A program made the translations under genes and the position numbers. Of a DNA stretch of 64,000 bases, positions 16,021-64,000 are shown piece by piece. The first letter of the stretch is position 1; every line of letters begins with the position of its first letter. The notes beneath the pieces were generated by a model that saw only the letters and a list, made by a program, of their open reading frames with translations, searched no databases and was not told the DNA's origin. This DNA is from Candidatus Harrisonbacteria bacterium (GTDB lineage Bacteria; Patescibacteriota; Minisyncoccia; UBA6257; 02-FULL-45-10c): assembly GCA_016192685.1 (NCBI GenBank), contig JACPTS010000001.1, forward strand, positions 97,710-161,709, read 5' to 3'.

Positions 16021-16050
16021 TCCCTCGATACATCGGGGGATTATTTTTTT
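16021..16050 (+). terminator. Rho-independent terminator (hairpin plus T-run)
   Basis: The hairpin tccctcgat-ac-atcggggga (9-bp stem, one U-G pair) is followed by ttattttttt, directly after the 15121-16020 gene. Confidence 0.7.
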
Positions 16051-40014: not shown

Positions 40015-40115
40015 TTTAAATGCGTTACTGCTATCTATATAAAACCAAAAAATAAGCCTAAAAGTTTTTAATGAAAATCCACGCAATGGCGTGGATTTTG
40101 TGTAAAGATTATTCT

Positions 40116-48574: not shown

Positions 48575-50074
48575 TTAAAATTTCAAAATATGCCCCTGAA
48601 CAGTTAAAATCAGCTCTACAATTTCCCGAACCGCGTGCTGCCCGCCCTTGGCTGCCGCGACATAATCAACAATGGATCTTATTCTCGGATGGGCATCGGC
48701 AACCGTGATTGATACTCCAACCACATTAAAAACCGCTTCATCATTTAAATCATCGCCAATATAAGCCGCTTCTTTTTGAGAAAATCCGTACTCCGACATA
48801 ATCCTTTTTAAAATTTCCGCTTTTCCGCCGGCATCGGCTACGCCTTGCGAACATTTAATATTCCAAGTTTTACAACGGGCAGCCACTACCGGATTAATTG
48901 TTTTAGAAATGACGTAGGGTGTGATGCCAAACCGTTTCAGCATTTCAATGCTTAAACCATCTTTACGGCTGCAACGCACGGTTTCTTTCCCGTTTTGGTC
49001 AATATAAACAAATCCATCGGTTAGCACGCCGTCAAAATCCATTGCCAATAACTTAACATTTTTTAACTTTTCGGCTAATTCTTGATTAGAAAACCAGATC
49101 GCCCTCCTGGGAAAAATAATTCTTACCATCGCCCAAGACTTATCATCAAATAACACGAAAGCCAGTAAAAAAATCAGTGTGCCGAACGCCTTAAAAAAAG
49201 TCGCCGGCTCGCCAAAAAACAAAACTCCAAAAATCATCGTCATAATCAAATAACTGCTGTTCATTACCAAATTTTTAAAAGCGATAAAAGCGCCAAATTT
49301 ATAACTTAAAAGATTGAAAATCAAGGCGCCGACAAAAAATACGCTGGTACCGGCCGCTGCTAACCAAAACTTCCGCATTGACAAAGAAAAATCAGCTAAT
49401 AACTCAACCTGATTTAACCAAAATAATCCTCCCAAAGAAACCAAAATCGTTGCTAAACCTCCCCAAAAACTCAATGTCAAAGGATGAGATTCTTTAATCC
49501 ATTGGGCAATCCCTTGAATAACCGCCAAAAGCAGCATCACCGCAAAAGACAATTCAATCCAAAGCGGCAAATTAGAAATCTCCGCCAAAGACGGATAACC
49601 GAGAACTGTATATCCGGCTGCTGCGGCAAACACAATGCCTAAAATCTTCCGAAAATTTAAGGTATTGCCGAAAAGAAAATAACCAATCAGCGCTCCGGGA
49701 ACTATGGATAAAGTAACAATTAAAGTATTGACGCCTACATCTCCGCCGCTAGCAAAAACCAAAAAAGTGAGGATAGTGGCAACTGAAAAAATAATCCCAT
49801 ATAAAATTGCTCCGAAAATATGTTTTGGGGCATCCAGAATACTGCCTAAAGATTTATCAGTAAGTCCCCGGCTGACAGCATAAATAACCTGAAACAAACC
49901 AATAACTAAAGTAGCGGCATAAGCATGGCCAAAAGTAACGCTGAGCTGGCCGACGGATTTCTGAAATAACTTAGCTCCAGTTTTAAAAACCGCTTCCAGC
50001 AAAATCCATTTCATCCAGGACTCACCGGCCATCTTTCTGCCATCCCAAAATATCTTTAAAAAATTATTTGCCAT
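48575..50074 (-). CDS. polytopic membrane domain fused to a KdsC-family (HAD-IIIA) ulosonate-phosphate phosphatase
   Basis: 499 aa. About 330 aa with 9-10 TM helices, then LLAMDFDGVLTDG...GDDLND...KGG, which is the KdsC/YrbI signature. Confidence 0.75.
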   Translation of the reverse strand: MANNFLKIFWDGRKMAGESWMKWILLEAVFKTGAKLFQKSVGQLSVTFGHAYAATLVIGLFQVIYAVSRGLTDKSLGSILDAPKHIFGAILYGIIFSVATILTFLVFASGGDVGVNTLIVTLSIVPGALIGYFLFGNTLNFRKILGIVFAAAAGYTVLGYPSLAEISNLPLWIELSFAVMLLLAVIQGIAQWIKESHPLTLSFWGGLATILVSLGGLFWLNQVELLADFSLSMRKFWLAAAGTSVFFVGALIFNLLSYKFGAFIAFKNLVMNSSYLIMTMIFGVLFFGEPATFFKAFGTLIFLLAFVLFDDKSWAMVRIIFPRRAIWFSNQELAEKLKNVKLLAMDFDGVLTDGFVYIDQNGKETVRCSRKDGLSIEMLKRFGITPYVISKTINPVVAARCKTWNIKCSQGVADAGGKAEILKRIMSEYGFSQKEAAYIGDDLNDEAVFNVVGVSITVADAHPRIRSIVDYVAAAKGGQHAVREIVELILTVQGHILKF

Positions 50075-51002
50075 GATTAACTAACTCCTCACAAATCTTT
50101 TTTGCAACCGCATATTGAGTTTCCGGAGTAAAAGTAGCAATATGCGGCATGGCAATAACTTTCGGGTGAGAAATCAAACGCTTAAGAATTTCATTATTAA
50201 ACGGCGGCTCTTCGGAAAATACGTCCAAAGCAACGCCGGCAACCCACCCGGATTCAACCGCCGCCAGCAACGCCTTTTCATCTGTCACTTCTCCGCGCGA
50301 AGTATTAATTACATAGGCTCCTGGTTTTAATAAAGATAATAATTTTTCATTAACTATTTGCTTGGTAAGGTCAGTCAATGGCACATGGAAAGTAATAAAA
50401 TCGCTTTTTTGAAGCAAGGTTTCCAATTCTGATTTTTCCACGCCAATACTCTTTAAAAAATCTTCATCATAGACTATATCATTTGCCAGCACCCGCATCC
50501 CTAAATTTCGCGCCATTTTCGCAACCTCTTTGCCGATATTTCCCAAACCGACGATTCCAAGAGTTTTCCCGGAAACTTGCGTTGCCGATGTCCGTTTCCA
50601 CTTGCCTTCTCTCATGTCATTGGCAAACGGCACGATATTGCGAGCCAAAGTAAAAATAAAAGCCATGGTCAGCTCGGCAACCGAATGTTTATTAATGCCG
50701 GGAAAAAACTTTAACGCAATTCCCCGCTCTTCCAGCGCCGGAATATCAATATGTTCTAACCCCACTCCAAATGGCATTACCACTTTAAGATTGGGAAATA
50801 GCGAAAATTCTTTTTTGCCAACCGGCAATAAAGCTCCGGCTACCATCGCCGCCACCTCTTCGGGATTAAAAGAAAATGGCGGGTTAAGCCGCTCATCTAG
50901 CACAACGCGCCAACTATGCTCATCTAAAAATTCCGCCAGGTCAGGAGAACGGACAATAGTATTAGAAAATGACGGAGTGGTGGTAAGAACTATTTTGGCC
51001 AT
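50064..51002 (-). CDS. D-isomer-specific 2-hydroxyacid dehydrogenase
   Basis: 312 aa. GKTLGIVGLGNIGKEVA and the catalytic R/E/H arrangement with PHIA. Confidence 0.85.
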   Translation of the reverse strand: MAKIVLTTTPSFSNTIVRSPDLAEFLDEHSWRVVLDERLNPPFSFNPEEVAAMVAGALLPVGKKEFSLFPNLKVVMPFGVGLEHIDIPALEERGIALKFFPGINKHSVAELTMAFIFTLARNIVPFANDMREGKWKRTSATQVSGKTLGIVGLGNIGKEVAKMARNLGMRVLANDIVYDEDFLKSIGVEKSELETLLQKSDFITFHVPLTDLTKQIVNEKLLSLLKPGAYVINTSRGEVTDEKALLAAVESGWVAGVALDVFSEEPPFNNEILKRLISHPKVIAMPHIATFTPETQYAVAKKICEELVNHGK

Positions 51003-52165
51003 GGATGCTGTTTCAAGGCTTTTTCATTTATTTCCGTGCCCCAGCCTGGTCCTTTCGGAAGTTCCATCTGGCCGTTAATAATCTTCGGAACATTGGTAAC
51101 CACCTCATCCCGCCACGGCACATCTTCCACATCCAATTCCATAATCCGAAGATTGGGAATCACCGCAGAAAGCTGGGCGCTGATAAAAGTCGCCAAATGC
51201 CCGTTATGGTTATGAGGCGCAAAATTCATTTCCTGTAATTCCGCCAAGGCCGCGATTTCTTTAGCGCGGATAAATCCATTCCAGGTCGGATTGGAAATAA
51301 CAATATCCATGGCATGGCGTTCCAAATAAGGACGATATTGCCTCGCGCCGTAAAGGTCTTCACCGGAAGCAATTGGAATTTTTACTGAATCCCTAATCAA
51401 CCGAAGCGCGCCTGGATCATAAGAATCCAGTTCCAGCCACATCAAATTGTATTTTTCCAGCATCCGGCCAATTTTAATAAAGCCCTCGGTTTTAAAATTA
51501 AAATTAAGGTCTAAAATAATATCTATATCATCGCCGGCAGCATCGCGAAGCGCGCTTGCCCACTTATCAATCGCTTTCAATTTATAATTATCAACATTCA
51601 GTTCTGGCCAGCCATCGCTTTTAGCAAAGCCCGCCATATAAATTTCCGGCTTCTCGCCAAAAAATGCGACTTTCGGCTTAATCACTTTAAAACCGGAGGA
51701 TTTTACCTCTTTAATTAACTCTTTTAACTCGCTAAGCGACTGCATCTGCGGTTTGCCGATCGCGGCCGCGTCCCGAACCCGGGAAGTGGCAAAATGCGAC
51801 CAGTATAAAGGAATGGTCTCGCGGACTGGCCCACCAAATAATTCGTAAACCGGAACGCTTAAAGCTTTTGCTTTAATATCTAAAAGCGCGTTTTCAATGC
51901 CGCCAATGGCTTTTTGAATAATACTGCCCGGACTCTGCCGAGTCCGCGAATACATCAGCCAGTATAATTTTTCCACCAAACGCGGGTCCTGACCAACTAA
52001 AAGCGAACTTAAATCTTTAATAACTCCCTCAAGTCCGCGCGGCGAGCCATGGGAATCAGAGCATTCGCTCCAGCCAACCAAACCTTCATCTGTGGAAATT
52101 TTAACAAAAGTCCACGGCCGCCAGCCCGCATCACAATATAAAGCTTCTACTTTAGTAATAACCAT
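50990..52165 (-). CDS. enolase-superfamily (mandelate racemase/muconate lactonizing enzyme-like) sugar-acid dehydratase
   Basis: 391 aa. Capping domain plus TIM-barrel acid residues (IDIILDLNFNF, LDSYD pattern). Confidence 0.75.
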   Translation of the reverse strand: MVITKVEALYCDAGWRPWTFVKISTDEGLVGWSECSDSHGSPRGLEGVIKDLSSLLVGQDPRLVEKLYWLMYSRTRQSPGSIIQKAIGGIENALLDIKAKALSVPVYELFGGPVRETIPLYWSHFATSRVRDAAAIGKPQMQSLSELKELIKEVKSSGFKVIKPKVAFFGEKPEIYMAGFAKSDGWPELNVDNYKLKAIDKWASALRDAAGDDIDIILDLNFNFKTEGFIKIGRMLEKYNLMWLELDSYDPGALRLIRDSVKIPIASGEDLYGARQYRPYLERHAMDIVISNPTWNGFIRAKEIAALAELQEMNFAPHNHNGHLATFISAQLSAVIPNLRIMELDVEDVPWRDEVVTNVPKIINGQMELPKGPGWGTEINEKALKQHPWPK

Positions 52166-52169
52166 TTTA

Positions 52170-52886
52170 TTATTTATTTAAATTATTCTTTAAATATTCG
52201 GCCACCATAAAATCCACTTCCGAATCAATGTCCACTGACCGGTCTTGTGGAACAATATAAGGCCGAATCCGCTCTCCGGTAATGGAATTATACTTGGAAA
52301 GTATATGGGGACGAAAAGCGACTAAATTAGCGCGAAAATAGGCCTTGGCATATCCTTGCCTAAGCAGAGGCGCCGCGTCTTTCGGGTCACCGCTGATATA
52401 GCCAACCACTAATTCTCCTCCCTTACCGTCCGGGACCAATTTTAAAGCTTTTGCCGGATGCTGGCTTGCCAGTGCCATTACAATAGAAGAGTCTGCTTCC
52501 GGATCATTTAAAAGCGCTTCCACGGCGCCGTCAAAATCGCCAGGCTGCTGAAAAGGCACGGTCGGCATTCCGCGCACCACTAAATCCGGCTCATAACTTT
52601 CATTTTCCCGAAGCCAATTTACCGCGTGATTCACATAATCAAAATCAGTGGATTTATCGCCGGAAAATTCTGCCGGCCGCAAAAATGGCGTTTCCGCGCC
52701 ATAATCTCTTGCCACTTTGGCATATTCTTCTGAATCAGTGGAAATAATCACCCGATTAACATATTTTGATTTTTTCGCCGCCTCAATAACCCAAGCCAAC
52801 AGCGGCTTTCCGCCAAGCAATTTTATATTTTTATTCGGAACGCCTTTTGAGCCGGAACGGGCGCCGATCAAAGCCAAAACCGTCAT
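52170..52886 (-). CDS. acylneuraminate cytidylyltransferase family (second CMP-sugar synthetase)
   Basis: 238 aa. LALIGARSGSKGVPNKN. Confidence 0.85.
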   Translation of the reverse strand: MTVLALIGARSGSKGVPNKNIKLLGGKPLLAWVIEAAKKSKYVNRVIISTDSEEYAKVARDYGAETPFLRPAEFSGDKSTDFDYVNHAVNWLRENESYEPDLVVRGMPTVPFQQPGDFDGAVEALLNDPEADSSIVMALASQHPAKALKLVPDGKGGELVVGYISGDPKDAAPLLRQGYAKAYFRANLVAFRPHILSKYNSITGERIRPYIVPQDRSVDIDSEVDFMVAEYLKNNLNK

Positions 52887-52898
52887 TGATATTACAAC

Positions 52899-53810
52899 CT
52901 AAAATATAGCCACTGGGTTAACTGGCGAGCCAGTGGCATTTTTAAGCCGCAAAGGATTAATAGAAATCAAAAATTCCCAGCGTTTTTTTTCCTTGCAAAC
53001 TTTAGCTAACTCTTCAAGATTAGCATTATCTAAAATCCAAAGACCCATACTTACCAATGAAATCACATGGAATGGATTGTTAATATTGGGATATAAATTG
53101 CTTTTATGACTATTTGCAGTATCTGAACCAATAATGGAAACTTCTCGCTCGCGAAGCCATGGCATAGCGGCGGCGCTTAATCCTGGTTCTTTTGCAATTT
53201 CAATATTTTCTTTTGTTTCTAAAATTCTTTTATAATTGCCAGTCCGCACTAATAATACATCACCCGATTCAACTTTCACTCCAACAATTTTTTCTGCCGC
53301 TTCCAAATCCGCAACCGTTACTGCTTCTCCCGATTCCAACCATTTTTTATTTTTTATAGCGGCAACATCCAATAACACGCCTCGTGTGATAATACCGTTT
53401 CTCAAAACCTCCACATCATTGACTTGCGCGCCTTCCCGAGAACTGACCAAATCTGCCGGCCGGTTATTATACATCTTGCCTTTCCAAAAATAATGGGCCG
53501 GGCTGTCTATGTGGGTAATGCTGTTGCCATGAAAAACCATTCCAATGTATTCCAATCCCGCTCGCCGACCTTCGCCGCTGTCAATCTCTTTACGCAACGC
53601 TTGCGTTTTAAGATCCGGCTCCGGAGAACTCTCTATCGGTCTTGCGCAAGTAACTGAAACTCCATCCCGTACCAAAGCCAAAGATTTTTTGACTTTCTTC
53701 GGATTTATAAAATTAATCGTTCCCAGCTCATCTTCTTTTCCCCAGCGTTCCCAATTGCTTAAAGAATCCAAATAACTTAAAACTTCTTTTTCGCTAAAAT
53801 TATCATTCAT
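52899..53810 (-). CDS. cyclase-family protein (PF04199, kynurenine-formamidase-like)
   Basis: 303 aa. HGNSITHIDSPAH matches the HxGTHxDxPxH cyclase motif. Confidence 0.65.
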   Translation of the reverse strand: MNDNFSEKEVLSYLDSLSNWERWGKEDELGTINFINPKKVKKSLALVRDGVSVTCARPIESSPEPDLKTQALRKEIDSGEGRRAGLEYIGMVFHGNSITHIDSPAHYFWKGKMYNNRPADLVSSREGAQVNDVEVLRNGIITRGVLLDVAAIKNKKWLESGEAVTVADLEAAEKIVGVKVESGDVLLVRTGNYKRILETKENIEIAKEPGLSAAAMPWLREREVSIIGSDTANSHKSNLYPNINNPFHVISLVSMGLWILDNANLEELAKVCKEKKRWEFLISINPLRLKNATGSPVNPVAIF

Positions 53811-53880
53811 AATATCGTAATTATATAACCCGCAAACAATACAAATAGTAATAAAAAAATACCCGTATTCTACAGGTATT

Positions 53881-54861
53881 TTATAAAATTTCCACTCCTT
53901 CTAAATTTCCTTCCAAAACATTCACTACATTCCGCGTAACTTTCAAAACAATTTCTTGTTCCGTGCTTTTAGTTAACGAGGCGCTATGAGGAGATAAAAT
54001 AATATTGCCGCCATTTTTTCCATACTCTATCAGTTTTTTCATAAACAGCTGATCAAACGGCGGCTCGCTGGAAAAAACATCCAGCGCGGCTCCGCCAATT
54101 TTTTTAGCCATTACTAATTCGGCCAGGACTTCTTCATCAACAACTGCGCCGCGGGAAATATTTACCAAAAACGCATCAGGCCTCATCAATGAAAGCAAAT
54201 TCTTACCAATCAAGTTAGTGGTTTCCGGAGTGAGTAAAACTGATACTACTACGGCATCACTGGCAGACATCACTTGGGGAAGCTCTACCAATTTTAATCC
54301 GTATTTATCTGCTATTTCTAACACTTCTGGCCGCCGCGATTGATTCCAACCAATAAGATTTCCGACACCTAACGCATGCAACTTCTCTGCCAAGAGACGC
54401 CCAATAGAACCAACCCCTACGATTCCTACGGTCATTTCTGATAAAGATTTGCCTCGGCTTTTCTGCCATATACCCCCAAGCATATTGCTATGCATCGGTA
54501 CAATATTTCTAGAAAGCGCTAAAATAAGGCCCAAAACAAATTCGCTGACTGGCTTAGCATTTAAGCCGGAAACACGGGTAACCCTAATTCCTTTAAGCCG
54601 AGCGGCAGCAAGATCTACGTTGTTATAGCCAGTTCCATTTCTGGCAATCGTCTTTAAATTTGGAAAAAGGCGCATAACCTCATCACCGCATTCTTTATCA
54701 CCCAATACCAAAGCAATCACTCTCTCCGCCATATCCACTGACAATTTAAAATCATCAGTTCGGATTAATTCAAATCGATCCTGAAAAACTTCCTGATTTG
54801 CTAACCCTCTCTCATTCCAAAAACCGCGCGCTGCTATTAGAATTACTGGTTTTTGATTCAT
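53881..54861 (-). CDS. D-isomer-specific 2-hydroxyacid dehydrogenase (second copy)
   Basis: 326 aa. VGIVGVGSIGRLLA with the PH and RG catalytic blocks. Confidence 0.85.
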   Translation of the reverse strand: MNQKPVILIAARGFWNERGLANQEVFQDRFELIRTDDFKLSVDMAERVIALVLGDKECGDEVMRLFPNLKTIARNGTGYNNVDLAAARLKGIRVTRVSGLNAKPVSEFVLGLILALSRNIVPMHSNMLGGIWQKSRGKSLSEMTVGIVGVGSIGRLLAEKLHALGVGNLIGWNQSRRPEVLEIADKYGLKLVELPQVMSASDAVVVSVLLTPETTNLIGKNLLSLMRPDAFLVNISRGAVVDEEVLAELVMAKKIGGAALDVFSSEPPFDQLFMKKLIEYGKNGGNIILSPHSASLTKSTEQEIVLKVTRNVVNVLEGNLEGVEIL

Positions 54862-55646
54862 TGCTGTACCCTCTTACGGAGCATGGTAATGCGAGTCGCA
54901 TCTTCTTCCGCCGCGTGAGTATGCAAACGGGATTTATTTTCCAGCCACAAAAGCTCCAGCTGATGCGCGCTCCTAACTGCCTCATCAAAAGATTCCAATC
55001 CCCGCTTAGCGTCAAATACCACCTTTCTGGTTTCAAAACGATCCAGTAAATTATTGGCAACCAAATTTTCAATCAGCGGGCGGCTGCCAGATTCAATGCT
55101 TCCGCCAAGCATTGTGCCAAACCCATGTTCTCGCGCCCCCCTGAAAATAGCAGTTACCCTTTCCGACATTAATGGAGAATCAATATCTTTACGAGTAAGT
55201 CCAAAAGATCCCGTAAGATCCACGCGGCCAATGGTGATGTGCTTAAGTCCATAAGCCGACGCAAGTTTCAGCATGGCATTTAAATCTTCATAAGCTTTCG
55301 CGGTTTCAATCATAAATATAATTGCGGTATCTTCCCGCTCATCTTCCGGCAAATGCTTATTAACCGCATCAATAAATTTACTAAGCGCGTAAACGCTTTC
55401 AATCATCGGGGCGACAATGCCGGAAACGCCAATCCGGCGCGCTTGCAAAATTCCCCAGACATCTTCCGGACCGCCAATTTTAAGAGTAAGATGCACGCCG
55501 GAACGCGATACAATATCTTTCAAACGCAATAATTCTTCAAAACGGGTGCCTTCCGATTCAAATTCCGCTTTCAAACCAACTACTCCATATTCATCGCGCA
55601 TTCTCGTAAGCAAAGCTACGATTTCTTTTTCTTTTATGTTCATCAT
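54858..55646 (-). CDS. HpcH/HpaI-family aldolase / citrate-lyase beta-like protein
   Basis: 262 aa. IETAKAYEDL and ITIGRVDLTGSFGL resemble the PF03328 active-site regions. Confidence 0.6.
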   Translation of the reverse strand: MMNIKEKEIVALLTRMRDEYGVVGLKAEFESEGTRFEELLRLKDIVSRSGVHLTLKIGGPEDVWGILQARRIGVSGIVAPMIESVYALSKFIDAVNKHLPEDEREDTAIIFMIETAKAYEDLNAMLKLASAYGLKHITIGRVDLTGSFGLTRKDIDSPLMSERVTAIFRGAREHGFGTMLGGSIESGSRPLIENLVANNLLDRFETRKVVFDAKRGLESFDEAVRSAHQLELLWLENKSRLHTHAAEEDATRITMLRKRVQQ

Positions 55647-55735
55647 ATCTCCTTTTATATTAGAACTATAAAAGATAACAAAATTTCCCGCATATCAGTC
55701 ACTGCGTCATAAACGAGCTACCTATCTGCCATGCG

Positions 55736-55757
55736 GCCTGCCTGCCGGCAGGCAGGC
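55736..55757. other. perfect 22-bp GC-rich palindrome in an intergenic region
   Basis: gcctgcctgccggcaggcaggc, between an SDR gene end and the aldolase gene start. Confidence 0.8.
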
Positions 55758-55772
55758 AACTACGGAGAAAAA

Positions 55773-56573
55773 TCAACGCATTATCGCTCCGCCATCAACA
55801 AAAAGTATTTGCCCGGTAATGTTTTTCGCCTCGTCAGAGCCGAGAAAAACCGCCGCCATCCCGATGTCTTCCGGAGTTTGCTCTCGCTGAAGCGGCACTA
55901 ATTCTTTCATGCGCTTTTCAAAAATGGCGCGCGGTTCCATATTTTGATATTTCTCCGGAAATAATTCTTTTAAATTTTCGGCAATATGTTCCCAAAGCGG
56001 CGTCCAAACCAATCCCGGCGCGATGGCATTCACCGTAACGCCATACGGAGCGAATTCGTGGGCAAGAATTTGGGTAAAAGTGGCGACTCCCATCTTGGCC
56101 ACGCTATACGGCGGTTTCATGCGGCCGGGCATGAATGCCGCGATAGATGAAAGATTAATAATTCTTCCGGATTTGCGTTCCTGAAAATGCGGCGCGATTG
56201 CTTTAGCGGCATAAAAAACTGGTTTCATATTAAATTTCCACGCCTCATCCCAATCTTCTTCGGTATTCCGAGTGAACGGCAGTCCGGGCCGGCATTCTTT
56301 TCCGACATTATTAACTAAAATATCTATTCCGCCGAATTTTTCAATCACTTTCCTGAAAAAATCATTTATCTCTTTTTCTTGAGTAACATCTAATTTTACC
56401 GCCGACACCTTTGCCCCGGACTTGGATAATTCCGATGCCGCGTTTTCCGCTTGTTCTAAATTAATATCAGCAATAACCGCGATTGCTCCTTCTTTTGCCA
56501 TGCAAGAGACAATTCCCTTTCCAATGCCGCTGGCGCCGCCGGTCACAACTGCTACTTTATTTTTGAGTCTCAT
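55773..56573 (-). CDS. SDR-family oxidoreductase
   Basis: 266 aa. VAVVTGGASGIGKG with catalytic YxxxK (YSVAK). Confidence 0.88.
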   Translation of the reverse strand: MRLKNKVAVVTGGASGIGKGIVSCMAKEGAIAVIADINLEQAENAASELSKSGAKVSAVKLDVTQEKEINDFFRKVIEKFGGIDILVNNVGKECRPGLPFTRNTEEDWDEAWKFNMKPVFYAAKAIAPHFQERKSGRIINLSSIAAFMPGRMKPPYSVAKMGVATFTQILAHEFAPYGVTVNAIAPGLVWTPLWEHIAENLKELFPEKYQNMEPRAIFEKRMKELVPLQREQTPEDIGMAAVFLGSDEAKNITGQILFVDGGAIMR

Positions 56574-56593
56574 AAATATTTTAATTATTAATT

Positions 56594-57397
56594 TTAACGC
56601 ATCACTGCGCCGCCGTCCACGAATAATATTTGTCCGGTGATATTTTTTGCTTCATCAGAGGCAAGAAAAACCGCCGCCATCCCGATGTCTTCCGGAGTTT
56701 GTTCTCTTTTTAAAGGAATCAAATCGCTTACATGCTTATTAAAAATCTGCCGCGGAGACATTTTTTTATATTTTTCCGGCCATCGCTCAACCAGCTGAGG
56801 CGCGAACCCTTCCCATAAAGGCGTCCAAACCAATCCCGGCGCGATGGCATTCACCGTAACGCCATACGGAGCGAATTCGTGGGCAAGAATTTGGGTAAAA
56901 GTCGCTATGCCGACCTTGGAAACGCTGTAATGGGGTTTAGTAAGTCCGGGCATAAATCCGGCAATAGAAGACATATTAATAATCCTACCTGATTTACGTT
57001 CCTGAAAATGCGGCGCGATTGCTTTAGCGGCATAAAAAACCGGCTTCACGTTAACATCCCAGACCAAATCCCAATCTTCTTCAGTATTATTAGTAAATGG
57101 CATTCCCAACTTTCCGGTAACACCAACGTTATTCACCAAAATATCAATTCCGCTAAAATCATCAATAACTCTCTTAATCGCTTTCCGCGTTTCTTGTTCT
57201 TTAGTAACGTCCACTTGTAATGCCAGTCCGCGAGTACCATAAGAATCCGCGCAAAATTTCATAACCTCTTCCGCTTGTTTTATATCACGGTCAGCAATAA
57301 TCGCGATTGCCCCCTCTTTTGCCATACAATTCACAATGCCTTTTCCAATGCCGTTGGCGCCGCCGGTTATAATTGCTACTTTATTTTTGAGTCTCAT
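56594..57397 (-). CDS. SDR-family oxidoreductase (tandem paralog)
   Basis: Start placed at the internal Met (MRLKNKVAIITGGANGIGKG); the ORF track extends to 57427. Shares stretches of up to ~85 bp identical to the adjacent paralog. Confidence 0.85.
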   Translation of the reverse strand: MRLKNKVAIITGGANGIGKGIVNCMAKEGAIAIIADRDIKQAEEVMKFCADSYGTRGLALQVDVTKEQETRKAIKRVIDDFSGIDILVNNVGVTGKLGMPFTNNTEEDWDLVWDVNVKPVFYAAKAIAPHFQERKSGRIINMSSIAGFMPGLTKPHYSVSKVGIATFTQILAHEFAPYGVTVNAIAPGLVWTPLWEGFAPQLVERWPEKYKKMSPRQIFNKHVSDLIPLKREQTPEDIGMAAVFLASDEAKNITGQILFVDGGAVMR

Positions 57398-57402
57398 TAT
57401 AA

Positions 57403-58155
57403 TTATTTTACTTGCTTTTCTTCGCAATGCGCGTTCATTAAGGCAAATTTCGGATTTTCATCTAAATATGTAAGCACCTCCAGAACGCTGATAATCTGCC
57501 CTCCGCCCTTATAAAATTTTTTATAGATCAATTCCATTAGCTCAAAATCTTCCGGAAAATCCACGGTCAGGCGATAATTCCGCGCGTATTTCGGCGGAGC
57601 AATAACTATCGGACCGATTTTAAATTCTCCTTTTTTATTGTCCATAATATAAGGATCTACATGCTCTTTGTCGTAAGCCGAAGTCGCTTCCCGAAACGCT
57701 TTCTCAATCGCCCGGAAAGAAAATATCTCGCAGTCAAGGCCGCGCGGAAAAGTTCTCTCGCCGGAAAATACATTACTGATGTAATCATAATTATCTTTTT
57801 TAAACGCCTCTAAACATAAATCAATAATTTTAGGGTCAATTAACGGGCAATCAGCAGTGATGCGAACAACAGTATCACCGGCAGTAGCGCCATATTTTTT
57901 TGCCGTTTCATAATAACGCTCCAGAACATTTTCCACCGATCCCCGAAAATATAAAAAATTATTTTCCCGGCAAAATTTTTCCGTTGCGTCATCTTCCGGC
58001 GCAATCGTGGTGGCTACTATAACTTTATCTATATAACGAGAACGCCTTACCCGGTTAACCACGTGCCAGAGCTGGGGCTTGCCCGCTAAATCTTTTAAGA
58101 TCTTTCCCGGCAGGCGGGTAGAACCCATCCGAGCCTGAATAATAGCTAAAATCAT
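57403..58155 (-). CDS. cytidylyltransferase (PseF/SpsF/acylneuraminate cytidylyltransferase family; third copy)
   Basis: 250 aa. LAIIQARMGSTRLPGKILKDLAGKP. Confidence 0.8.
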   Translation of the reverse strand: MILAIIQARMGSTRLPGKILKDLAGKPQLWHVVNRVRRSRYIDKVIVATTIAPEDDATEKFCRENNFLYFRGSVENVLERYYETAKKYGATAGDTVVRITADCPLIDPKIIDLCLEAFKKDNYDYISNVFSGERTFPRGLDCEIFSFRAIEKAFREATSAYDKEHVDPYIMDNKKGEFKIGPIVIAPPKYARNYRLTVDFPEDFELMELIYKKFYKGGGQIISVLEVLTYLDENPKFALMNAHCEEKQVK

Positions 58156-59294
58156 TAAAAAGTTTTAATTATTTCAATCAACTTTTTAACAATAAATTTC
58201 TGGTCTTTGGATTTTAAATCGGGAAAAATCGGCAAAGAAATCGCGGCTTCATAATACGCTTCAGCTTTTGGACACAGGCCTTTTTTAAATCCCAAAGATT
58301 GATAATAGGGATGCCAATAAACCGGCAGATAATGAACCTGGACTCCGATGCCCGCCTCTCTTAATTTTTTAAAAATGCCGGAACGTTTTTTCACCAACGC
58401 GCCTTTTAATCTGATTACATAAATATGCCAAGATGAAGAAAAATCTTTATTGTCTGACGGAAGTTCTAATTTATCAGAAAATTTCTTGAAAGCTTTGTTA
58501 TAAGCTGCGGCAATTTTTTTTCTTGCTTTTATAAATTTATCCAATCTTTTAAGCTGGGAAATTCCCAGCGCCGCCTGAATATCGGTAATCCGGTAGTTAT
58601 ATCCCAGTTCCTGCATCTCGTGATACCAATCTCCATGGGATTTCATTTTGAATTTCTCCGGGTCGCGGACAATTCCATGATGCCGGAAAACTTTCATTTT
58701 TTCATAATAATCTTTGTTATCGGTAAGCACCGCTCCTCCTTCCCCGGTAGTAATGGATTTTACCGGATGAAAACTAAATGCCGTCATGTCAGCCACAGAG
58801 CCGATTTTTTTTCCTTTATAACTTGCTCCTAACGCGTGACAGCCGTCTTCCACTAAAACTAAATTATGTTCACGCGCGATTTTTTTAAATTCTTCTAATT
58901 TCGCCGGCAAACCGGCAAAATCCACCACAGAAATAATTCTGGTTTTAGAATTTATTTTTTTTACCGCTTCCTTGGGATCCAGATTCAAATCTTCCGCAAT
59001 ATCGGCAAAAACCGGCTTAGCGCCTAAATAAAGACCGGGATTGGCAGTGGCGGCAAAAGTCAGTGGAGTAGTTATGAATTCGTCTCCAGATTTTAATCCG
59101 GCGGCGAAATAAGCGGCGTGAAGCGCGGCCGTGCCGCTGGAAAAAATCACGGCATATTTAGCGCCGCAATATTTGGCCAAAGCCTCCTCAAATTCGGCTA
59201 TTTTGGGACCTTGGCTTAACCAATCCGATTTCAAAACTTTCGTAACTGCTTCAATATCCGATTTATCAATTGACTGATGACCGTAAGGTATCAT
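58155..59294 (-). CDS. DegT-family PLP-dependent aminotransferase (PseC-like; third copy)
   Basis: 379 aa. MIPYGHQSIDKSDIEAV...LSQGPKIAEFE. Confidence 0.85.
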   Translation of the reverse strand: MIPYGHQSIDKSDIEAVTKVLKSDWLSQGPKIAEFEEALAKYCGAKYAVIFSSGTAALHAAYFAAGLKSGDEFITTPLTFAATANPGLYLGAKPVFADIAEDLNLDPKEAVKKINSKTRIISVVDFAGLPAKLEEFKKIAREHNLVLVEDGCHALGASYKGKKIGSVADMTAFSFHPVKSITTGEGGAVLTDNKDYYEKMKVFRHHGIVRDPEKFKMKSHGDWYHEMQELGYNYRITDIQAALGISQLKRLDKFIKARKKIAAAYNKAFKKFSDKLELPSDNKDFSSSWHIYVIRLKGALVKKRSGIFKKLREAGIGVQVHYLPVYWHPYYQSLGFKKGLCPKAEAYYEAAISLPIFPDLKSKDQKFIVKKLIEIIKTF

Positions 59295-59306: not shown

Positions 59307-60284
59307 TTATACAAAATTAGCAAGGTCTTCCTTAGTCAATTCCCTTGCTGCATTGCTGGCATAATTAAAATTTTCAGGAACATTAGGAAAATCTTTAAAA
59401 TGCGATTTATCCCACCAATCATGGCTCGGTTCAACTAGATAATATTTGCCAATGTCCCTCGCTCTCCGCGCCTCATCTTCGGTAAGAAGCATTTCATGCA
59501 ATTTTTCCCCGGGCCTAGCGCCGATAATTTTAACTTTGCAATTGGGGACCAAAACCGAAATTAAATTCTTAACTTTCATTGCCGATAATTTTGGCACAAC
59601 GATCTCTCCGCCCTTCATTAAGCGTAAAGTATCCAAAACAAGATCTACTCCTTGATCCAAAGTAATCCAAAATCTAGTCATATCTTCGTGAGTGAGAGTA
59701 ACTTCGCCATTTTTTTTCTGTTCTTGTAAAACTTCGGTGATACTTCCGCGGCTGCCGACTACGTTTCCGTAACGCACTGCGCTAAAAATCGGTTTTTTCT
59801 CTATTCCGCTGTAAGAATTGGCCGCGATTAAAAGCTTTTCCGCGCAAAGCTTAGTGGCGCCGTAAAGATTTATCGGATTTACCGCTTTATCAGTGGAAAC
59901 CAGCACAACTTTTTTCACCCCATTATCCAAAGCCGCGTCAATGACATTTTGCGTGCCCAAAACATTGGTTTTAACCGCTTCCAACGGATTAAACTCCAGC
60001 ATCGGAACCTGTTTAAGGGCGGCCGCGTGGACTACCACATCCACCCCCCGAAAAGCTCGCTGTAATCTGGCAAGGTCGCGGACGTCTCCTAAAAAAAATC
60101 TTAATTTATTTCCCGGATTGCCGAATTTCCTCTGCATGGCATGCTGTTTAAATTCATCGCGGCTAAAAACAATAACCCGCTTGCAATCGCCGTCTTTCAA
60201 AAGAAACTCAACAAATTTTTGGCCGAAAGAACCGGTACCGCCGGTAACAAGCACGGACTTATCTTTCAAAAAATTTATATCCAT
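59307..60284 (-). CDS. UDP-GlcNAc 4,6-dehydratase (PseB/FlaA1 family; second copy)
   Basis: 325 aa. VLVTGGTGSFG, HAAALKQVP, VSTDKAVNP. Confidence 0.85.
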   Translation of the reverse strand: MDINFLKDKSVLVTGGTGSFGQKFVEFLLKDGDCKRVIVFSRDEFKQHAMQRKFGNPGNKLRFFLGDVRDLARLQRAFRGVDVVVHAAALKQVPMLEFNPLEAVKTNVLGTQNVIDAALDNGVKKVVLVSTDKAVNPINLYGATKLCAEKLLIAANSYSGIEKKPIFSAVRYGNVVGSRGSITEVLQEQKKNGEVTLTHEDMTRFWITLDQGVDLVLDTLRLMKGGEIVVPKLSAMKVKNLISVLVPNCKVKIIGARPGEKLHEMLLTEDEARRARDIGKYYLVEPSHDWWDKSHFKDFPNVPENFNYASNAARELTKEDLANFV

Positions 60285-60383: not shown

Positions 60384-61328
60384 ATGCAATGCGGCATTTG
60401 CAAAAAAAATTCCAATCCAATATTTAAAGAAAAAAGCGGGAATTATTCTCTATATGAATGCCCGCTCTGCGGCGGCCAATTTTGGAACCCGATGAAAAAT
60501 CCGGGGGCGGAGTGGTATGAAAAAGATATCCGGTATTCTTTCCGGAATAAAAATCCACTGAAAACTCCGGAGGTCAACCATCGGGAATTTCTGCGCGATT
60601 TGCCAGCGTCCAAAGGAAAACTTTTAGATATCGGAATGGGTACGGGTAATTTTCTGGCCGCGGCAGTAGCCAATGGCTATGACGGCTATGGAACTGATTT
60701 TGACAATGATGCCATTGAAACGGCCAAAGAATTTTTCGGCCTCCAAAATGTTTTCCCGCTGAATACCGAAGAGGCAATCAAAAAATTCGGTCCGGGATAT
60801 TTTGACGTCATTACGCTCTTTGAAGTTCTGGAACACCTGGAAGACCCCTCCGAATCCCTGGAAAAAATAAAGGTTCTTTTGAAAAAAGGCGGGTATCTGG
60901 CAATCAGTGTGCCTTACCGCGGATCTTCAAAATTATTTAAAGCCCACGACATACCGCCGCGCCATCTGACCAGATGGAGCGAAAAATCCATGGAAAACTT
61001 TTTAAACTCGCATCAATTTTCCGTAACGCGGATGAAAGTCATTCCGGTTCCCTTTTCTTATTTAATCACCAAATATCATTTTTGGTACGAGGGCATTTTC
61101 AGTTTCGGCGCGGTAGAAAAACTTACCTCGCCGAAAAAAACGCAAAAGGGAGAAACTATTGCCAATAATTTCAAAAAAAACTACAGGAAAATCAAGATGC
61201 TGCAATCGCTGGCGCGTCTGAAAGATTATCTGCTTTTTTCCATCCCCGCGGCAATTTTATACCTGCGCCTGCTATTGAATAAAAAGGCGGGACTTGACCT
61301 TTATGTTCTTGCGCAATTTAAAGATTAA
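60384..61328 (+). CDS. class I SAM-dependent methyltransferase with an N-terminal Cys4 zinc-ribbon
   Basis: 314 aa. CGIC...CPLCGG, then motif I LLDIGMGTGNF. Confidence 0.75.
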   Translation: MQCGICKKNSNPIFKEKSGNYSLYECPLCGGQFWNPMKNPGAEWYEKDIRYSFRNKNPLKTPEVNHREFLRDLPASKGKLLDIGMGTGNFLAAAVANGYDGYGTDFDNDAIETAKEFFGLQNVFPLNTEEAIKKFGPGYFDVITLFEVLEHLEDPSESLEKIKVLLKKGGYLAISVPYRGSSKLFKAHDIPPRHLTRWSEKSMENFLNSHQFSVTRMKVIPVPFSYLITKYHFWYEGIFSFGAVEKLTSPKKTQKGETIANNFKKNYRKIKMLQSLARLKDYLLFSIPAAILYLRLLLNKKAGLDLYVLAQFKD

Positions 61329-62413
61329 ACTCTTCGGATAGTTTTCTGCCAAACTTTCATTCCTTCTAAATAAGATGAAATATAATTTTTCTGATGTTCA
61401 TCCAATTTTTTATCTTGCGACAAAAATTTTTCTAAGCCGAAAATAAGCTCTCCATAGCAATCCCCGTAATTTTTTCCCTTCATTTTTATTTTCTGAAGCC
61501 AATCGCAAAAAAGATCGCTCAAAATCATCCCGTCCCGCTCTTTATCAAAATCCTTAAAATAATTATGCGGGTTGCGGTCTTGATAAACCAACGGATTGCC
61601 AAAAGAAATGTAGTGCCCCAAATAATCGGCAATCGCCTTAATTACGTAAGCCGCCCAAATATCATCATACCTTCCGACCATCGGGCTTAAAAAATAAGCC
61701 GGAATAATTTCCCGCGCCAGCGCCGTATTTTGGGAATTAAAAGGCGACCAGGTGCCTTTTCCCAAAGCAAAATTTTCTTTTCGCTTATAACTCAGAACAT
61801 TAATCGGATTTGTTAATCTGGTGACCGCGTCAATATCCGGGTCCCCAAGCCAAAATCCGGCATTAACCACGATTTTTCCTTTTTTCTTTTTAACGGAAAG
61901 CTTTTCTTTCAGCCAGCGCTTCCCCATCGGAAAACCGCGATGATAAAAAGGCGCATTTTTTTCTTCTTTTAAAAAACCGCAGACATTCAGCCAGCCGGTG
62001 GAAGAACGGATAAAATCCATTTTTTGTTCCGTGCCCACAATGCTGTTCTGGCCGACAAAATCCCCGCTGGCAAAAAAATTGTCGTCATCAATAGTGATTA
62101 TCAATTCCGCGCCCTGTTCATAAGCAAATAAAATCCCTATATTCCTCCGCTGGATGGAATTAAATACCAGATGCTTTTCCAGCTCCGGATATTTTTTCAG
62201 ATAAACCGCCTGATCGGCGACATTAAAAAAATGGATTGGGACATCAGTTTTTCTACTAAGTTCTTTACAGAATATTTTTGCTTCCAAAGGAGTTTTTTTA
62301 TCTCCGACAACAATGCATTCTGTATCTTTATGCCCATGCTTTTTAAAATTATTGATATAATCTTTTAAAAGGACTGGAACATTTATCGTGGTTGTGACTA
62401 TCGCTGTTTTCAT
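61325..62413 (-). CDS. GT75/RGP-like protein (reversibly glycosylated polypeptide / UDP-arabinopyranose mutase family)
   Basis: 362 aa. ITIDDDNFFA (cf. plant RGP TIDDDCFVA) and RYDDIWAAYVIKAIADYLG (cf. RGP RYDDMWAGWC.KVICDHLG). Confidence 0.6.
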   Translation of the reverse strand: MKTAIVTTTINVPVLLKDYINNFKKHGHKDTECIVVGDKKTPLEAKIFCKELSRKTDVPIHFFNVADQAVYLKKYPELEKHLVFNSIQRRNIGILFAYEQGAELIITIDDDNFFASGDFVGQNSIVGTEQKMDFIRSSTGWLNVCGFLKEEKNAPFYHRGFPMGKRWLKEKLSVKKKKGKIVVNAGFWLGDPDIDAVTRLTNPINVLSYKRKENFALGKGTWSPFNSQNTALAREIIPAYFLSPMVGRYDDIWAAYVIKAIADYLGHYISFGNPLVYQDRNPHNYFKDFDKERDGMILSDLFCDWLQKIKMKGKNYGDCYGELIFGLEKFLSQDKKLDEHQKNYISSYLEGMKVWQKTIRRV

Positions 62414-62429
62414 CTCGTTAGAAAAATAA

Positions 62430-63458
62430 TCAAATTCTTTTTTTAGCCATTTCTAAAACTCGACTCATGCCCTCTTCCAAACTGACTTTCGGTTTCCATC
62501 CCAAACTATAAATTTTCTTGGGATCGGCATATCTGGATTGGACGCCGACCGGTTTATCTAAAAGCTGTTTTATAGTTGGATTATAACCTTCTATTTTTGC
62601 CAATATTTTTATAATTTCATTAAAACTTCTCAATTCGCCGGTGCCGATATTCACCCCGCTGCCATCGGAAATTTTATCCAAGACAACAAACATCGCCTCA
62701 ACGCAATCGTCTATATAAACAAAATCTCTGCCCTGCTCGCCGGTTCCCCAAACCGTTATAGGATTTTCTCTTTTAGCAATGCGCGCGGCAATGGCCGGGA
62801 CCGGATAAGTCAAATCCTGGTCTTCGCCGTAACCGGAAAATGGCCGGACGCAGGCCACGTGTAGGCCGTAATGTTTTGCCGCCAAAGTGCTTAAATATTC
62901 TCCCGATAACTTGCTCCAGCCATAAGTCATATCCGGCTGGCCAAGATTCCCGCCAAAAGAAATCACTTCTTCCGGCAAAGCAATATGCTTTTCTTTAGAT
63001 TGCAGATTAACCGGATAGGCGGCGCTGGAACTCGCGTACATAATTCTGGAAATTTTATCTTTATTCCGCGTTGCCCAGACAAAAAATAATGAATCAATCG
63101 CGAAGTCAGTCGCCACCAGCACGGGATCGCCATCAATTAATAATCTGCCGCCGACAATAGATGCCAAATGAAAAACATCGGAAAATTCCGGTAACTTTAT
63201 TTGAGAGCGGCTTTTTAATTGATCTAAGAAAAAATCCAACGCGTCTTTTTCTATAAATACCAGTTCTTGGCCGCCTTTTTTATAAACCGAATATTCCGGC
63301 TCCATTGTTTTTTCAAATTCCAAAAGCCATTTATCCGGATGCCAGCCGGTAAATAGGTTATCCACCACCCAAACCGACTCGCCGCGATTTAAAAGATATT
63401 TAATTAAATGTCGGCCGACAAATCCGCAACCACCGGTAACTAAAACTGGATTTTTCAT
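62430..63458 (-). CDS. NAD-dependent nucleotide-sugar epimerase/dehydratase (extended SDR)
   Basis: 342 aa. VLVTGGCGFVGRHL with the YxxxK catalytic pair (YGWSK). Confidence 0.85.
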   Translation of the reverse strand: MKNPVLVTGGCGFVGRHLIKYLLNRGESVWVVDNLFTGWHPDKWLLEFEKTMEPEYSVYKKGGQELVFIEKDALDFFLDQLKSRSQIKLPEFSDVFHLASIVGGRLLIDGDPVLVATDFAIDSLFFVWATRNKDKISRIMYASSSAAYPVNLQSKEKHIALPEEVISFGGNLGQPDMTYGWSKLSGEYLSTLAAKHYGLHVACVRPFSGYGEDQDLTYPVPAIAARIAKRENPITVWGTGEQGRDFVYIDDCVEAMFVVLDKISDGSGVNIGTGELRSFNEIIKILAKIEGYNPTIKQLLDKPVGVQSRYADPKKIYSLGWKPKVSLEEGMSRVLEMAKKRI

Positions 63459-64000
63459 AAATTTTCTTTTTTAGATAATAACACTTTAAAAGCTATTTTA
63501 AAATACTTAAAATTGGCAAAAAAAGTATTCTGAGATTCGCCTTCCTTGCGGGCATGCCACTGGCAAGGAATTTCTTTTATCCGGGCGCCGAGCCGAAGCG
63601 GCTTTAAAATGGTTTCCAGTAAAAACGGATGGCGCAATTCTTCCCAGCGAATTTTTTGGACTAAATCAGTTTTAAAAATTCGGAATCCATAAGTTAAATC
63701 GGAAAGATTCGTCCAATATAACCATTGGAAAAATTTCTGAAAAATAAAATTCAAAAAGAATTTTATCGGATTATAAGAACGAAATCCTCCGGCACCTCCC
63801 ATCCAGCGAGATGCCGTGACAATATCGTAATTTCCAGTATTGGCTTCGTTGATAAGATTTTTAACGACATGCGGATCGGTCTCCAAATCACTTGCCATCA
63901 TAAGAACCCATTTGCCGCTTGCTAAACCAAAAGCATCTCTCATTGCCCCGCCAAGATAAGGCAATTTTTGCCGGTAATCCTTAATGAAATCGCCGTATTG
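63455..64000 (-). CDS. glycosyltransferase family 2 (DPM1-like), N-terminus beyond the window end
   Basis: The C-terminal two-thirds of a GT2 domain is visible (ASDLETDP ... TASRW ... GFRIFK). The ORF track starts at Met 63964, only 36 nt from the window edge, and the DxD-containing N-terminal part of the domain is not seen. The track is blind beyond the edge, so the N-terminus is probably outside the window. Confidence 0.65.
   Translation of the reverse strand, partial: QYGDFIKDYRQKLPYLGGAMRDAFGLASGKWVLMMASDLETDPHVVKNLINEANTGNYDIVTASRWMGGAGGFRSYNPIKFFLNFIFQKFFQWLYWTNLSDLTYGFRIFKTDLVQKIRWEELRHPFLLETILKPLRLGARIKEIPCQWHARKEGESQNTFFANFKYFKIAFKVLLSKKENL

Follow-up and report, generated by a model that had tools for sequence, protein, structure and literature searches.

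A GT75-family protein of a Harrisonbacteria genome as a candidate ring-contracting mutase in a predicted surface-furanosylation module

In a 64,000-nucleotide stretch of a Candidatus Harrisonbacteria genome (assembly GCA_016192685.1, contig JACPTS010000001.1, positions 97,710 to 161,709), here called the window, the open reading frame (ORF) 61325-62413 on the minus strand codes for a 362-aa protein of glycosyltransferase family 75 (GT75). We propose, with a probability of roughly 0.55, that this protein belongs to a module in which a nucleoside diphosphate (NDP)-sugar would be epimerized, contracted from the pyranose to the furanose form by the GT75 protein, transferred to polyprenyl phosphate and finally used by a GT-C-fold enzyme for surface glycosylation. 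The genes concerned lie side by side on the minus strand. Directly upstream of the GT75 gene, an extended short-chain dehydrogenase/reductase (SDR) of 342 aa that co-evolves with it is encoded at 62430-63458 (Pfam Epimerase, 1.3e-33), followed at 63455-64000 by the 3′ part of a family 2 glycosyltransferase (GT2) gene (Pfam Glycos_transf_2). The latter is cut by the window end; in a longer copy of the locus (L001) it codes for 239 aa and extends over approximately 63455-64174, i.e. some 174 bp past the window. Next to it, outside the window, lies the gene for a 528-aa membrane protein, here called the GT-C protein. Its stop codon overlaps the GT2 start by 4 bp, the GT2 stop and the SDR start again overlap by 4 bp, and a gap of 16 bp separates the SDR and GT75 genes. 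Since, moreover, the GT75 gene converges with a methyltransferase gene on the plus strand (60384-61328), the stop codons of the two overlapping, the GT-C, GT2, SDR and GT75 genes form one four-gene operon with GT75 in last position, separate from the downstream PseB/PseC genes. Scans for sigma-70 promoters and terminators between 60 and 64 kb returned no more sites than in shuffled sequence. An identical GT75 protein, annotated as hypothetical, has been deposited from a metagenome-assembled genome of Candidatus Harrisonbacteria, a member of the candidate phyla radiation (CPR/Patescibacteria).

An initial annotation of this DNA had described a 362-aa protein with motifs of plant reversibly glycosylated polypeptides (RGPs) and UDP-L-arabinopyranose mutases (UAMs), adjacent to an extended SDR and a GT2. 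The protein does contain both motifs, TIDDDNF (residues 107-113) and RYDDIWAAYVIKAIADYLG (248-266), and the ORFs of the two neighbours were confirmed. Genuine membership in the GT75/RGP family, far beyond local motif similarity, is likewise confirmed. With 47.4 bits the protein passes the gathering cutoff (23.8) of the Pfam RGP profile PF03214, residues 84-338 aligning to profile positions 74-323 of 342, and the same domain was found in all of its 120 closest homologues; an NCBIfam search gave no match. The best Protein Data Bank (PDB) matches, obtained with phmmer, were six entries of a single protein labelled 'Transglycosylse', which is MtdL (E=2e-49, residues 3-331). MtdL is a Mn2+-dependent, flavin-independent GDP-L-galactopyranose/GDP-L-fucopyranose mutase of the A201A pathway and, together with Hyg20, one of the sole two characterized bacterial GT75 members (PMC9937993). 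An AlphaFold model of the GT75 protein (pLDDT 94.1, pTM 0.93) matched the six MtdL entries over the whole length in Foldseek (TM-score 0.91-0.92, rmsd 2.2-2.4 Å, approx. 371 columns) and thus carries a GT-A N-terminal domain, the family-specific core and C-terminal helical domains. Generic GT-A enzymes reached TM-scores of only about 0.4, and the E-value and TM-score (0.92) of the MtdL match refute assignment to an unrelated GT-A family. The rice UAM entry, in comparison, aligned with E=0.013 and over residues 180-327 only, and rice UAM2 gave a TM-score of 0.63 at 17% identity. The protein is a member of the bacterial MtdL lineage; MtdL is its closest solved relative, and the plant UAMs are distant.

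We mapped the residues defined by the MtdL structure and its mutants onto the GT75 protein, the 120 closest homologues and approximately 150 diverse representatives. The DDD/DXD motif D109-D110-D111-N112 and R159 are invariant in both homologue sets, and D193 (D195 in MtdL), Q228 (Q229), R248 (R257), D251 (D260), R280 (R289) and H283 (H292) are essentially so. In MtdL, R159 is the autoglycosylated nucleophile and D260 the proposed base (PMC9937993). Apart from D87, every residue whose mutation abolishes MtdL activity is thus invariant in both sets, as are the nucleotide ligands R289 and H292. S227, the counterpart of MtdL S228, whose exchange for Ala lowers activity by about 79% (PMC9937993), is invariant among the close homologues and can be T, D or N among the diverse ones. 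Where MtdL has the Mn ligand His287, the GT75 protein has Gln278, which could ligate the metal via its amide oxygen. Gln occupies this position in 118 of the 120 close homologues, and both His and Gln occur in the wider family. Conservation this strict speaks for a functional metal site and against decay. Judged by these residues and by the model, the GT75 protein is predicted to be an active, metal-dependent and flavin-independent NDP-sugar pyranose-to-furanose mutase.

A quite different reading would make the protein no mutase at all, namely an inactive scaffold resembling class-2 RGPs, or a self- or protein-arginine glycosyltransferase. The plant protein AtRGP5 is inactive and lacks His287, both the D87N and the D87S exchange abolish MtdL activity, and autoglycosylation of an Arg is intrinsic to GT75 enzymes (PMC9937993). 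Nevertheless, we regard such a role as very improbable. AtRGP5 has also lost Arg257, which, unlike in that protein, is retained here (R248) along with every other catalytic or ligand residue. The strong conservation of Gln278 and of Ile87 (113 of 120 close homologues) indicates selection for a specific active site, not decay. No second, 'active' paralogue to be scaffolded is encoded nearby, and the tight coupling and occasional fusion to an NDP-sugar SDR, described below, fit an enzyme of a nucleotide-sugar pathway.

Preference for guanine over uracil in MtdL is set by Thr13 and Ser86, as established by isothermal titration calorimetry of T13P and S86D variants, and plant RGPs have Pro and Asp there (PMC9937993). 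The GT75 protein has Thr8 and Ser86 at these guanine-selecting positions, both near-invariant in the clade (position 86 is S in 99, C in 17 and V in 4 of the close homologues), and its base residues T8/D38/S86 are of the guanine type. MtdL Asn42 is replaced by Lys (K40), which is the norm among prokaryotic homologues. Of the residues typical of plant UAMs, it has neither the Pro/Asp/Asp set of MtdL positions 13/42/86 nor the Ser of position 87, but Thr/Lys/Ser and Ile in their place. Position 87 is a proven sugar-specificity switch, being Asp in the enzymes for GDP-L-Fuc and GDP-L-Gal and Ser in those for UDP-L-Ara and UDP-D-Gal. MtdL Asp87 contacts the C4 hydroxyl of the sugar and is essential (PMC9937993), and both S91D and S91Y abolish the activity of AtRGP2. 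At this site the GT75 protein has Ile, as do 113 of the close homologues (V in 6, D in 1), and by alignment Ile would represent a third state of the switch. Among the diverse representatives two main active-site types occur, D87/H287 (42) and I/V87/Q287 (50), and we refer to the subtype of the GT75 protein as K40/I87/Q278.

The SDR partner belongs to a tightly conserved orthologous group of its own. NCBIfam has no model that reaches its cutoff (dTDP-glucose dehydratase scored 96 bits against a cutoff of 365), and its best relatives in the PDB, which are of mixed function, share 25-30% identity with it. Invariant features are the GxxGxxG motif, Asp33 at the end of strand β2, S143-S144-S145-A146-A147-Y-P and Y179-x3-K183, so that the Ser/Tyr/Lys triad (S144, Y179, K183) is present. 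Asp33 suggests NAD+ rather than NADP as cofactor. Guided by the pairing of MtdL with MtdM, we considered a GDP-mannose 3,5-epimerase. Indeed, comparison with the Arabidopsis enzyme (GME; sequence verified against PDB 2c59) by hhalign gave 99.7% probability at 29% identity, and the unusual GME loop 'YASSxxxYPxxxQ...L.E' is also found in the SDR. This candidate was rejected because the catalytic dyad of GME is missing: Cys145 aligns to the invariant Ala146 and Lys217 to the invariant Pro219. In 4,6-dehydratases and UDP-GlcA decarboxylases, the catalytic Ser/Thr is followed by one or more acidic residues (TDE or TSE). No acidic residue follows the catalytic Ser of the SDR (SSSAAYP), so these two activities were rejected as well; in particular, the Glu expected of a dTDP-glucose 4,6-dehydratase, an identity of the SDR that would have spoken against the initial annotation, is missing. 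As the protein, GME-like in architecture, lacks both the GME dyad and the dehydratase acidic residue, the simplest reading is that it is probably an NAD+-dependent NDP-sugar epimerase acting by transient oxidation and reduction only, like a GalE-type 4-epimerase.

Linkage of the two genes extends far beyond the window. All ORFs of 80 GT75 loci from many phyla were clustered without prior assumptions, and one GT2 orthologous group (approx. 240 aa) and one SDR orthologous group recurred directly upstream of GT75 and in its orientation, the order being GT2, SDR, GT75. About 30 loci have the three genes abutting on one strand as a cassette; they belong to CPR phyla, the Acidobacteriota, Nitrospinota, Chloroflexota and Gammaproteobacteria, and archaea. 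The SDR orthologue, 50-73% identical to the SDR of the window, occurred in 33 loci and always with the K/R-I-Q type of GT75, and the GT2 orthologue accompanied GT75 in 27 of the 53 loci having at least three genes on each side. Furthermore, there are two independent SDR-GT75 fusion proteins (L010, 721 aa; P0125, 742 aa). Such fusions are strong evidence that SDR and GT75 would catalyze consecutive steps. Long SDR ORFs in three other loci (L061, L013, L036) were rejected as fusions, being over-extended starts in high-GC DNA. In Bryobacterales, a variant arrangement consists of GT-C (PMT_2), GT2 and GT75 without SDR. The contexts of D/H-type (MtdL-like) homologues, intended as a contrast, were on contigs too short or uninformative. 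In one of these (P0253; loci L087/L088), the GT75 gene has a methyltransferase gene on one side and a B12-binding radical SAM gene on the other, amid many very small ORFs, a setting quite unlike the GT2-SDR-GT75 cassette. A Pfam census of 150 soluble neighbours revealed no recurrent sugar-1-phosphate nucleotidyltransferase except a protein combining CTP_transf_like with a phosphomannose isomerase (PMI) cupin in five CPR loci. This 272-aa fusion (cluster c17; L011:7245-8063 and four other CPR loci) joins an RfaE-domain-II-like nucleotidyltransferase to a GDP-mannose-type PMI cupin, is found repeatedly close to the cassette in loci of Saccharibacteria and Kaiserbacteria and is a candidate sugar-activating enzyme.

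The initial annotation had suggested that the trio supplies or installs a furanose by a plant-like route, with the SDR as UDP-xylose 4-epimerase and the GT75 protein as UDP-L-arabinopyranose mutase. A furanose remains plausible. The route from UDP-Xyl via UDP-L-Arap to UDP-L-Araf is not supported, as the protein is closer to GDP-specific MtdL. To be sure, plant UAMs are the best-known members of the GT75 family, the N-terminal and catalytic motifs of the SDR (VVDNLFTG, SSSA...YxxxK) resemble those of GalE and of UDP-xylose synthase (UXS), and the best matches of the C-terminal half of the SDR are UDP-sugar 4-epimerases and UXS. However, the plant UAM is a far weaker match than MtdL (E=0.013 and TM-score 0.63 versus 2e-49 and 0.92), the base-selectivity residues are of the GDP type (T, S) and not the UDP type (P, D), and position 87 is Ile instead of the Ser of UDP-Ara/Gal enzymes. 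Nor is a UDP-xylose synthase encoded nearby; the sole UDP-Glc/GDP-Man dehydrogenase-like ORF is 46 kb away and apparently truncated. A supply of UDP-L-Araf is therefore very doubtful.

A more serious rival, if still a rather unlikely one, is a UDP-based module for D-galactofuranose (Galf), in which the SDR would act as a UDP-Glc 4-epimerase, if a divergent one, and the GT75 protein would replace the UDP-galactopyranose mutase UGM/Glf without the need for flavin. Galf is the commonest hexofuranose of prokaryotes. Like GalE, the SDR has no auxiliary catalytic residues, and the resemblance of its C-terminal half to UDP-sugar epimerases would be accounted for. Loci without SDR, as in Bryobacterales, are explained if a housekeeping GalE supplies UDP-Gal, and plant GT75 enzymes can make UDP-Galf (PMC9937993). 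Against this stand the base-contact residues of GDP-specific MtdL across the whole prokaryotic family, the absence of Ser at position 87, and the fact that the SDR is only 25-30% identical to any characterized GalE and forms its own orthologous group. As the MtdL-like base residues of the GT75 protein favour GDP and the C-terminal half of the SDR pulls towards UDP, we consider GDP the somewhat better candidate for the nucleotide of the proposed module and UDP a possible but less probable one.

The remaining two genes of the operon point from the nucleotide sugar to the membrane. A lipid-linked donor was not considered in the initial annotation. In PDB searches the GT2 family profile matched Pyrococcus furiosus dolichol-phosphate-mannose synthase (DPMS) with E=9e-26 (profile positions 8-236 of 246), ArnC with 3e-18 and GtrB with 9e-13. 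Other GT2s matched at 1e-12 or weaker and with the N-terminal half only. The C-terminal RxxGES motif of DPMS/ArnC-type enzymes is conserved, 'aRkEGeSh' aligning with 'RARGESK' and 'REFGESK', and the metal-site Asp is kept. The GT2 is thus a predicted Dol-P-Man synthase/ArnC/GtrB-like polyprenyl-phosphate glycosyltransferase which, together with its GT-C neighbour, points to a lipid-linked donor. The neighbour in question, the 528-aa protein, has no Pfam match itself. Its homologues carry PMT_2 (PF13231) matches and GT39/ArnT-like names, and the sole sequence-level PDB match of the family profile was AftB (E=0.05). The top 31 Foldseek PDB matches of its model (pLDDT 95.2) were all GT-C proteins with TM-scores of 0.45-0.57, among them STT3, ArnT, AftB, DPY19, ALG9, PglB and PMT. 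An acidic 'DDxFYY' motif is located in the first extracytoplasmic loop, where D40 is invariant and D41 near-invariant. By its predicted structure, the protein is a GT-C-fold enzyme. Using hidden Markov models of the GT-C families found in these loci, we detected a GT-C gene at most four genes from GT75 in 30 of 74 loci, compared with 1.2% of the genes further out in the same loci. Presence of GT-C correlated with that of GT2 (odds ratio 5.6, p=8e-4). In seven CPR loci, a 118-aa protein with four transmembrane segments abuts GT75; its best match, below cutoff, is the flippase subunit ArnE.

Several observations weigh against the proposed module. No hydrophobic or transmembrane segment was detected in the GT2, so it could be an ordinary cytoplasmic furanosyltransferase of the GlfT/WbbI type, which would use the NDP-furanose directly on a lipid-diphosphate-linked oligosaccharide, with the GT-C protein as an unrelated polymerase- or ligase-type neighbour. 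The locus sits in a dense glycan island, in which membrane proteins are frequent in any case, and the known Galf transferases are GT2 enzymes, of which GlfT2 is cited as a structural neighbour of MtdL (PMC9937993). We nonetheless hold direct cytoplasmic use to be distinctly unlikely: the GT2 profile is far closer to DPMS, ArnC and GtrB (9e-26 to 9e-13) than to other GT2s and keeps RxxGES, GT-C genes are specifically enriched beside GT75 and correlated with the GT2, the GT-C stop overlaps the GT2 start in the operon described here, and GT-A C55-P-sugar synthases that lack a transmembrane segment and work with a partner protein are documented (PMC8035078). Likewise unfavourable to the lipid-linked scheme, polytopic membrane proteins of any kind were not enriched within three genes of GT75 (29 of 53 loci versus approx. 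45% expected), and a search of the window and its extension for an ArnE/GtrA-like flippase found none. About 40% of the I/Q-type loci have no SDR orthologue nearby, and the affinity of the C-terminal half of the SDR to UDP-sugar enzymes conflicts with GDP as the nucleotide. Within the GT75 protein, the Mn ligand His287 is replaced by Gln, loss of this His being a feature of inactive AtRGP5, and D87, which is essential in MtdL, is replaced by Ile. Finally, the active-site types follow overall similarity and are not cleanly monophyletic in a crude neighbour-joining tree. With no clean separation of I/Q from D/H clades, the I/Q signature was dropped as a clade definition and kept as a set of specificity positions.

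The analysis shows to which family the GT75 protein belongs, how its residues are conserved, how it is folded, how the genes are linked and which fold classes the partners have; enzymatic activity, the lipid-linked intermediate, GDP as nucleotide, the acceptor and the following order of steps are what we infer for the module. In the first, the SDR with tightly bound NAD+ would turn a common NDP-sugar (probably one carrying GDP) into an epimer whose ring can be contracted. The GT75 protein would then contract the ring with Arg159 as nucleophile and Asp251 as base, the diphosphate being held by a metal on Asp111 and Gln278. In the third step, the Dol-P-Man synthase/ArnC-like GT2 would move the furanose to polyprenyl phosphate and thereby pull the unfavourable equilibrium forward. 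After flipping, the GT-C enzyme would add the sugar, outside the membrane, to a glycan or protein of the surface. As to the sugar, invariant Ile87 argues against L-Gal or L-Fuc, as in MtdL, and against L-Ara or D-Gal, as in plants, being bound in the known manner. The sugar may instead be unusual, as the Ile87/Gln278 signature suggests; one example would be a furanose linked to GDP that is neither L-Galf nor L-Fucf. GDP-D-altrose, the C3-epimer, would be pure speculation and is not claimed.

The wider implications depend on this scheme being correct. Furanose sugars are, to our knowledge, absent from mammals and important on microbial surfaces, where bacterial furanose donors have been thought to come almost exclusively from flavin-dependent mutases or from the mycobacterial phosphoribosyl pyrophosphate (PRPP) route; GT75 mutases are known to us only from plants and two antibiotic pathways. 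We tentatively suggest, at less than even odds, that the operon represents the first role of a prokaryotic GT75 in primary, i.e. cell-surface, metabolism: a widespread, horizontally mobile four-part module that makes a new class of polyprenyl-monophosphate hexo- or pentofuranoses, possibly of an unusual sugar, from NDP-furanoses and furanosylates surface glycans or proteins in CPR bacteria, Acidobacteriota, Nitrospinota, archaea and others. If so, surface furanoses would have a second route, one that depends on a metal and is widespread in uncultivated lineages, among them CPR bacteria whose cofactor biosynthesis is minimal, and a new class of lipid-linked furanose donors for GT-C enzymes would be predicted. 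The natural variation of the active site (Asp, Ser or Ile at the specificity switch and His or Gln at the metal site) would provide a panel for engineering the enzymatic synthesis of NDP-furanoses, which are chemically hard to make, and thousands of 'hypothetical proteins' would gain a testable function.

How many proteins are concerned follows from the abundance of the family. The initial annotation had called bacterial GT75-like proteins rare and poorly characterized. The latter is true, as our literature search found no characterization of the clade in question. Rare they are not in environmental data: relatives of the GT75 protein fall into 5,140 clusters at 90% identity (E<=1e-5) and 2,743 clusters at 50% identity (E<=1e-3). 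A pattern-limited scan of one genome per species yielded 103 GT75 loci in CPR phyla, Acidobacteriota, Nitrospinota, Chloroflexota, Gammaproteobacteria, Planctomycetota, Chlamydiota, Actinomycetota and archaea. The GT75 protein is thus part of a large, uncharacterized prokaryotic subfamily. Some I/Q-type members (P0085, P0098, P0107, P0121; 477-582 aa in total) carry a C-terminal class-I methyltransferase domain, which suggests methylated furanoses in some lineages. The convergent gene of the window (60384-61328, plus strand) also codes for a class-I SAM methyltransferase (314 aa with a Cys-rich N-terminal segment; Methyltransf_23, 1.2e-21). It was rejected as an orthologue of the fused domains, to which it is not similar. 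Orthologues (cluster c12) occur near the cassette in six loci, and it is a possible tailoring enzyme with a weak link to the module.

The window holds one very large surface-glycan island, at 26054-60284 on the minus strand. This region contains two NeuB genes (35623-36681 and 42093-43103), three CMP-sugar-type cytidylyltransferase genes (40558-41235, 52170-52886 and 57403-58155), genes for PseB (59307-60284) and PseC (58155-59294), both above the NCBIfam cutoff, and a second dehydratase/aminotransferase pair (37850-38887 and 38884-40194). In addition, two KpsC/S-like Capsule_synth genes (43137-46072), an ABC exporter (46069-47928), a Wzy_C protein with tetratricopeptide repeats (26054-28240), WbqC and a PIG-L deacetylase are encoded there. 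These genes suggest at least two nonulosonic-acid pathways and a Kps-like export. Between the nonulosonate genes, at 50064-57427 on the same strand, lies an unusual set of enzymes comprising an HpcH/HpaI aldolase (54858-55646), two tandem classical SDR paralogues (55773-56573 and 56594-57427), two D-2-hydroxyacid dehydrogenases (50064-51002 and 53881-54861), an MR_MLE protein of the enolase superfamily (50990-52165) and a Cyclase-family protein (52899-53810), which may serve in sugar or sugar-acid tailoring. Further away, the dehydrogenase-like ORF mentioned above (15121-16020, plus strand; 299 aa) lacks the C-terminal domain and the first approx. 70 profile positions and may be truncated or a pseudogene. 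Its neighbours code for an initiating transferase (Bac_transf, 12388-13731) and a flippase (Wzx, 13806-15095). Two giant minus-strand ORFs flanking glycan genes (16049-23158, 2,369 aa; 5682-9740, 1,352 aa) may code for surface proteins and hence potential targets of glycosylation. The same island contains, upstream and past the window end, a 616-aa protein in which a GT4 glycosyltransferase is fused to a class-I methyltransferase (L001:2544-4394, corresponding to approx. 68020-69870 in window numbering); it adjoins an FkbM-family methyltransferase and another Capsule_synth-like gene on the opposite strand.

Among known systems, the closest to the GT75 protein are MtdL and Hyg20 (PDB 7xpr, 7xps, 7xpu, 7yua), which share its family and full-length fold. 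With MtdL it also has in common the DDD motif, the nucleophilic Arg, the Asp base, the phosphate-binding Arg and His, Gln229, and the guanine-selecting Thr and Ser. At about 30% identity, it differs by the exchanges Asp87 to Ile, His287 to Gln and Asn42 to Lys, and its substrate is probably not one of the MtdL sugars. Furthermore, MtdL (Marinactinospora thermotolerans, A201A) and Hyg20 (hygromycin A) belong to antibiotic clusters, whereas the GT75 gene described here is part of a surface-glycan operon. The plant RGP/UAM proteins (OsUAM1/3, AtRGP1-3 and rice UAM2, 8cid) share the Pfam and CAZy family, the motifs and presumably the Arg-mediated, metal-dependent contraction. They differ in their UDP-type base residues (P, D, D), in Ser at the switch and in being cytosolic or Golgi-associated, their product being used as NDP-sugar after transport.

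Beyond the mutase step, the predicted product resembles mycobacterial decaprenylphosphoryl-arabinose (DPA), a polyprenyl-phosphate furanose donor for the extracytoplasmic GT-C enzymes of the Emb/Aft group, of which AftB matches the GT-C protein structurally (TM-score 0.53) and in sequence (E=0.05). DPA, however, is built from PRPP on the lipid and then 2′-epimerized by DprE1/E2. Hence, in contrast to the module proposed here, that route involves neither an NDP-sugar nor GT75 nor a DPM1-like GT2. The overall logic is also that of the multicomponent transmembrane glycosylation systems Arn, Gtr/Csb and Pgf (PMC8035078, PMC12041528). Arn combines an SDR (ArnA), a GT2 (ArnC), a flippase similar to small multidrug resistance proteins (ArnE/F) and a GT-C enzyme (ArnT), and some of its parts are homologous to those described here: the GT2 matches ArnC with E=3e-18, the GT-C protein matches ArnT with a TM-score of 0.55, and an ArnE-like protein with four transmembrane segments is present in some loci. 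Pgf, like the module, has an epimerase. None of these systems has a ring-contracting mutase or a known furanose, and the C-terminal transmembrane helices of ArnC and GtrB are missing from the GT2. The same net reaction as proposed for the GT75 protein is carried out by UGM/Glf and by the UDP-Arap and CDP-Fuc/6d-Alt mutases of Campylobacter jejuni, which have an unrelated fold and depend on FADH2 rather than on a divalent metal only. The C. jejuni enzymes, which are of the FADH2/UGM type, supply furanose donors for bacterial surface glycans (PMC12369002, PMC10615251).

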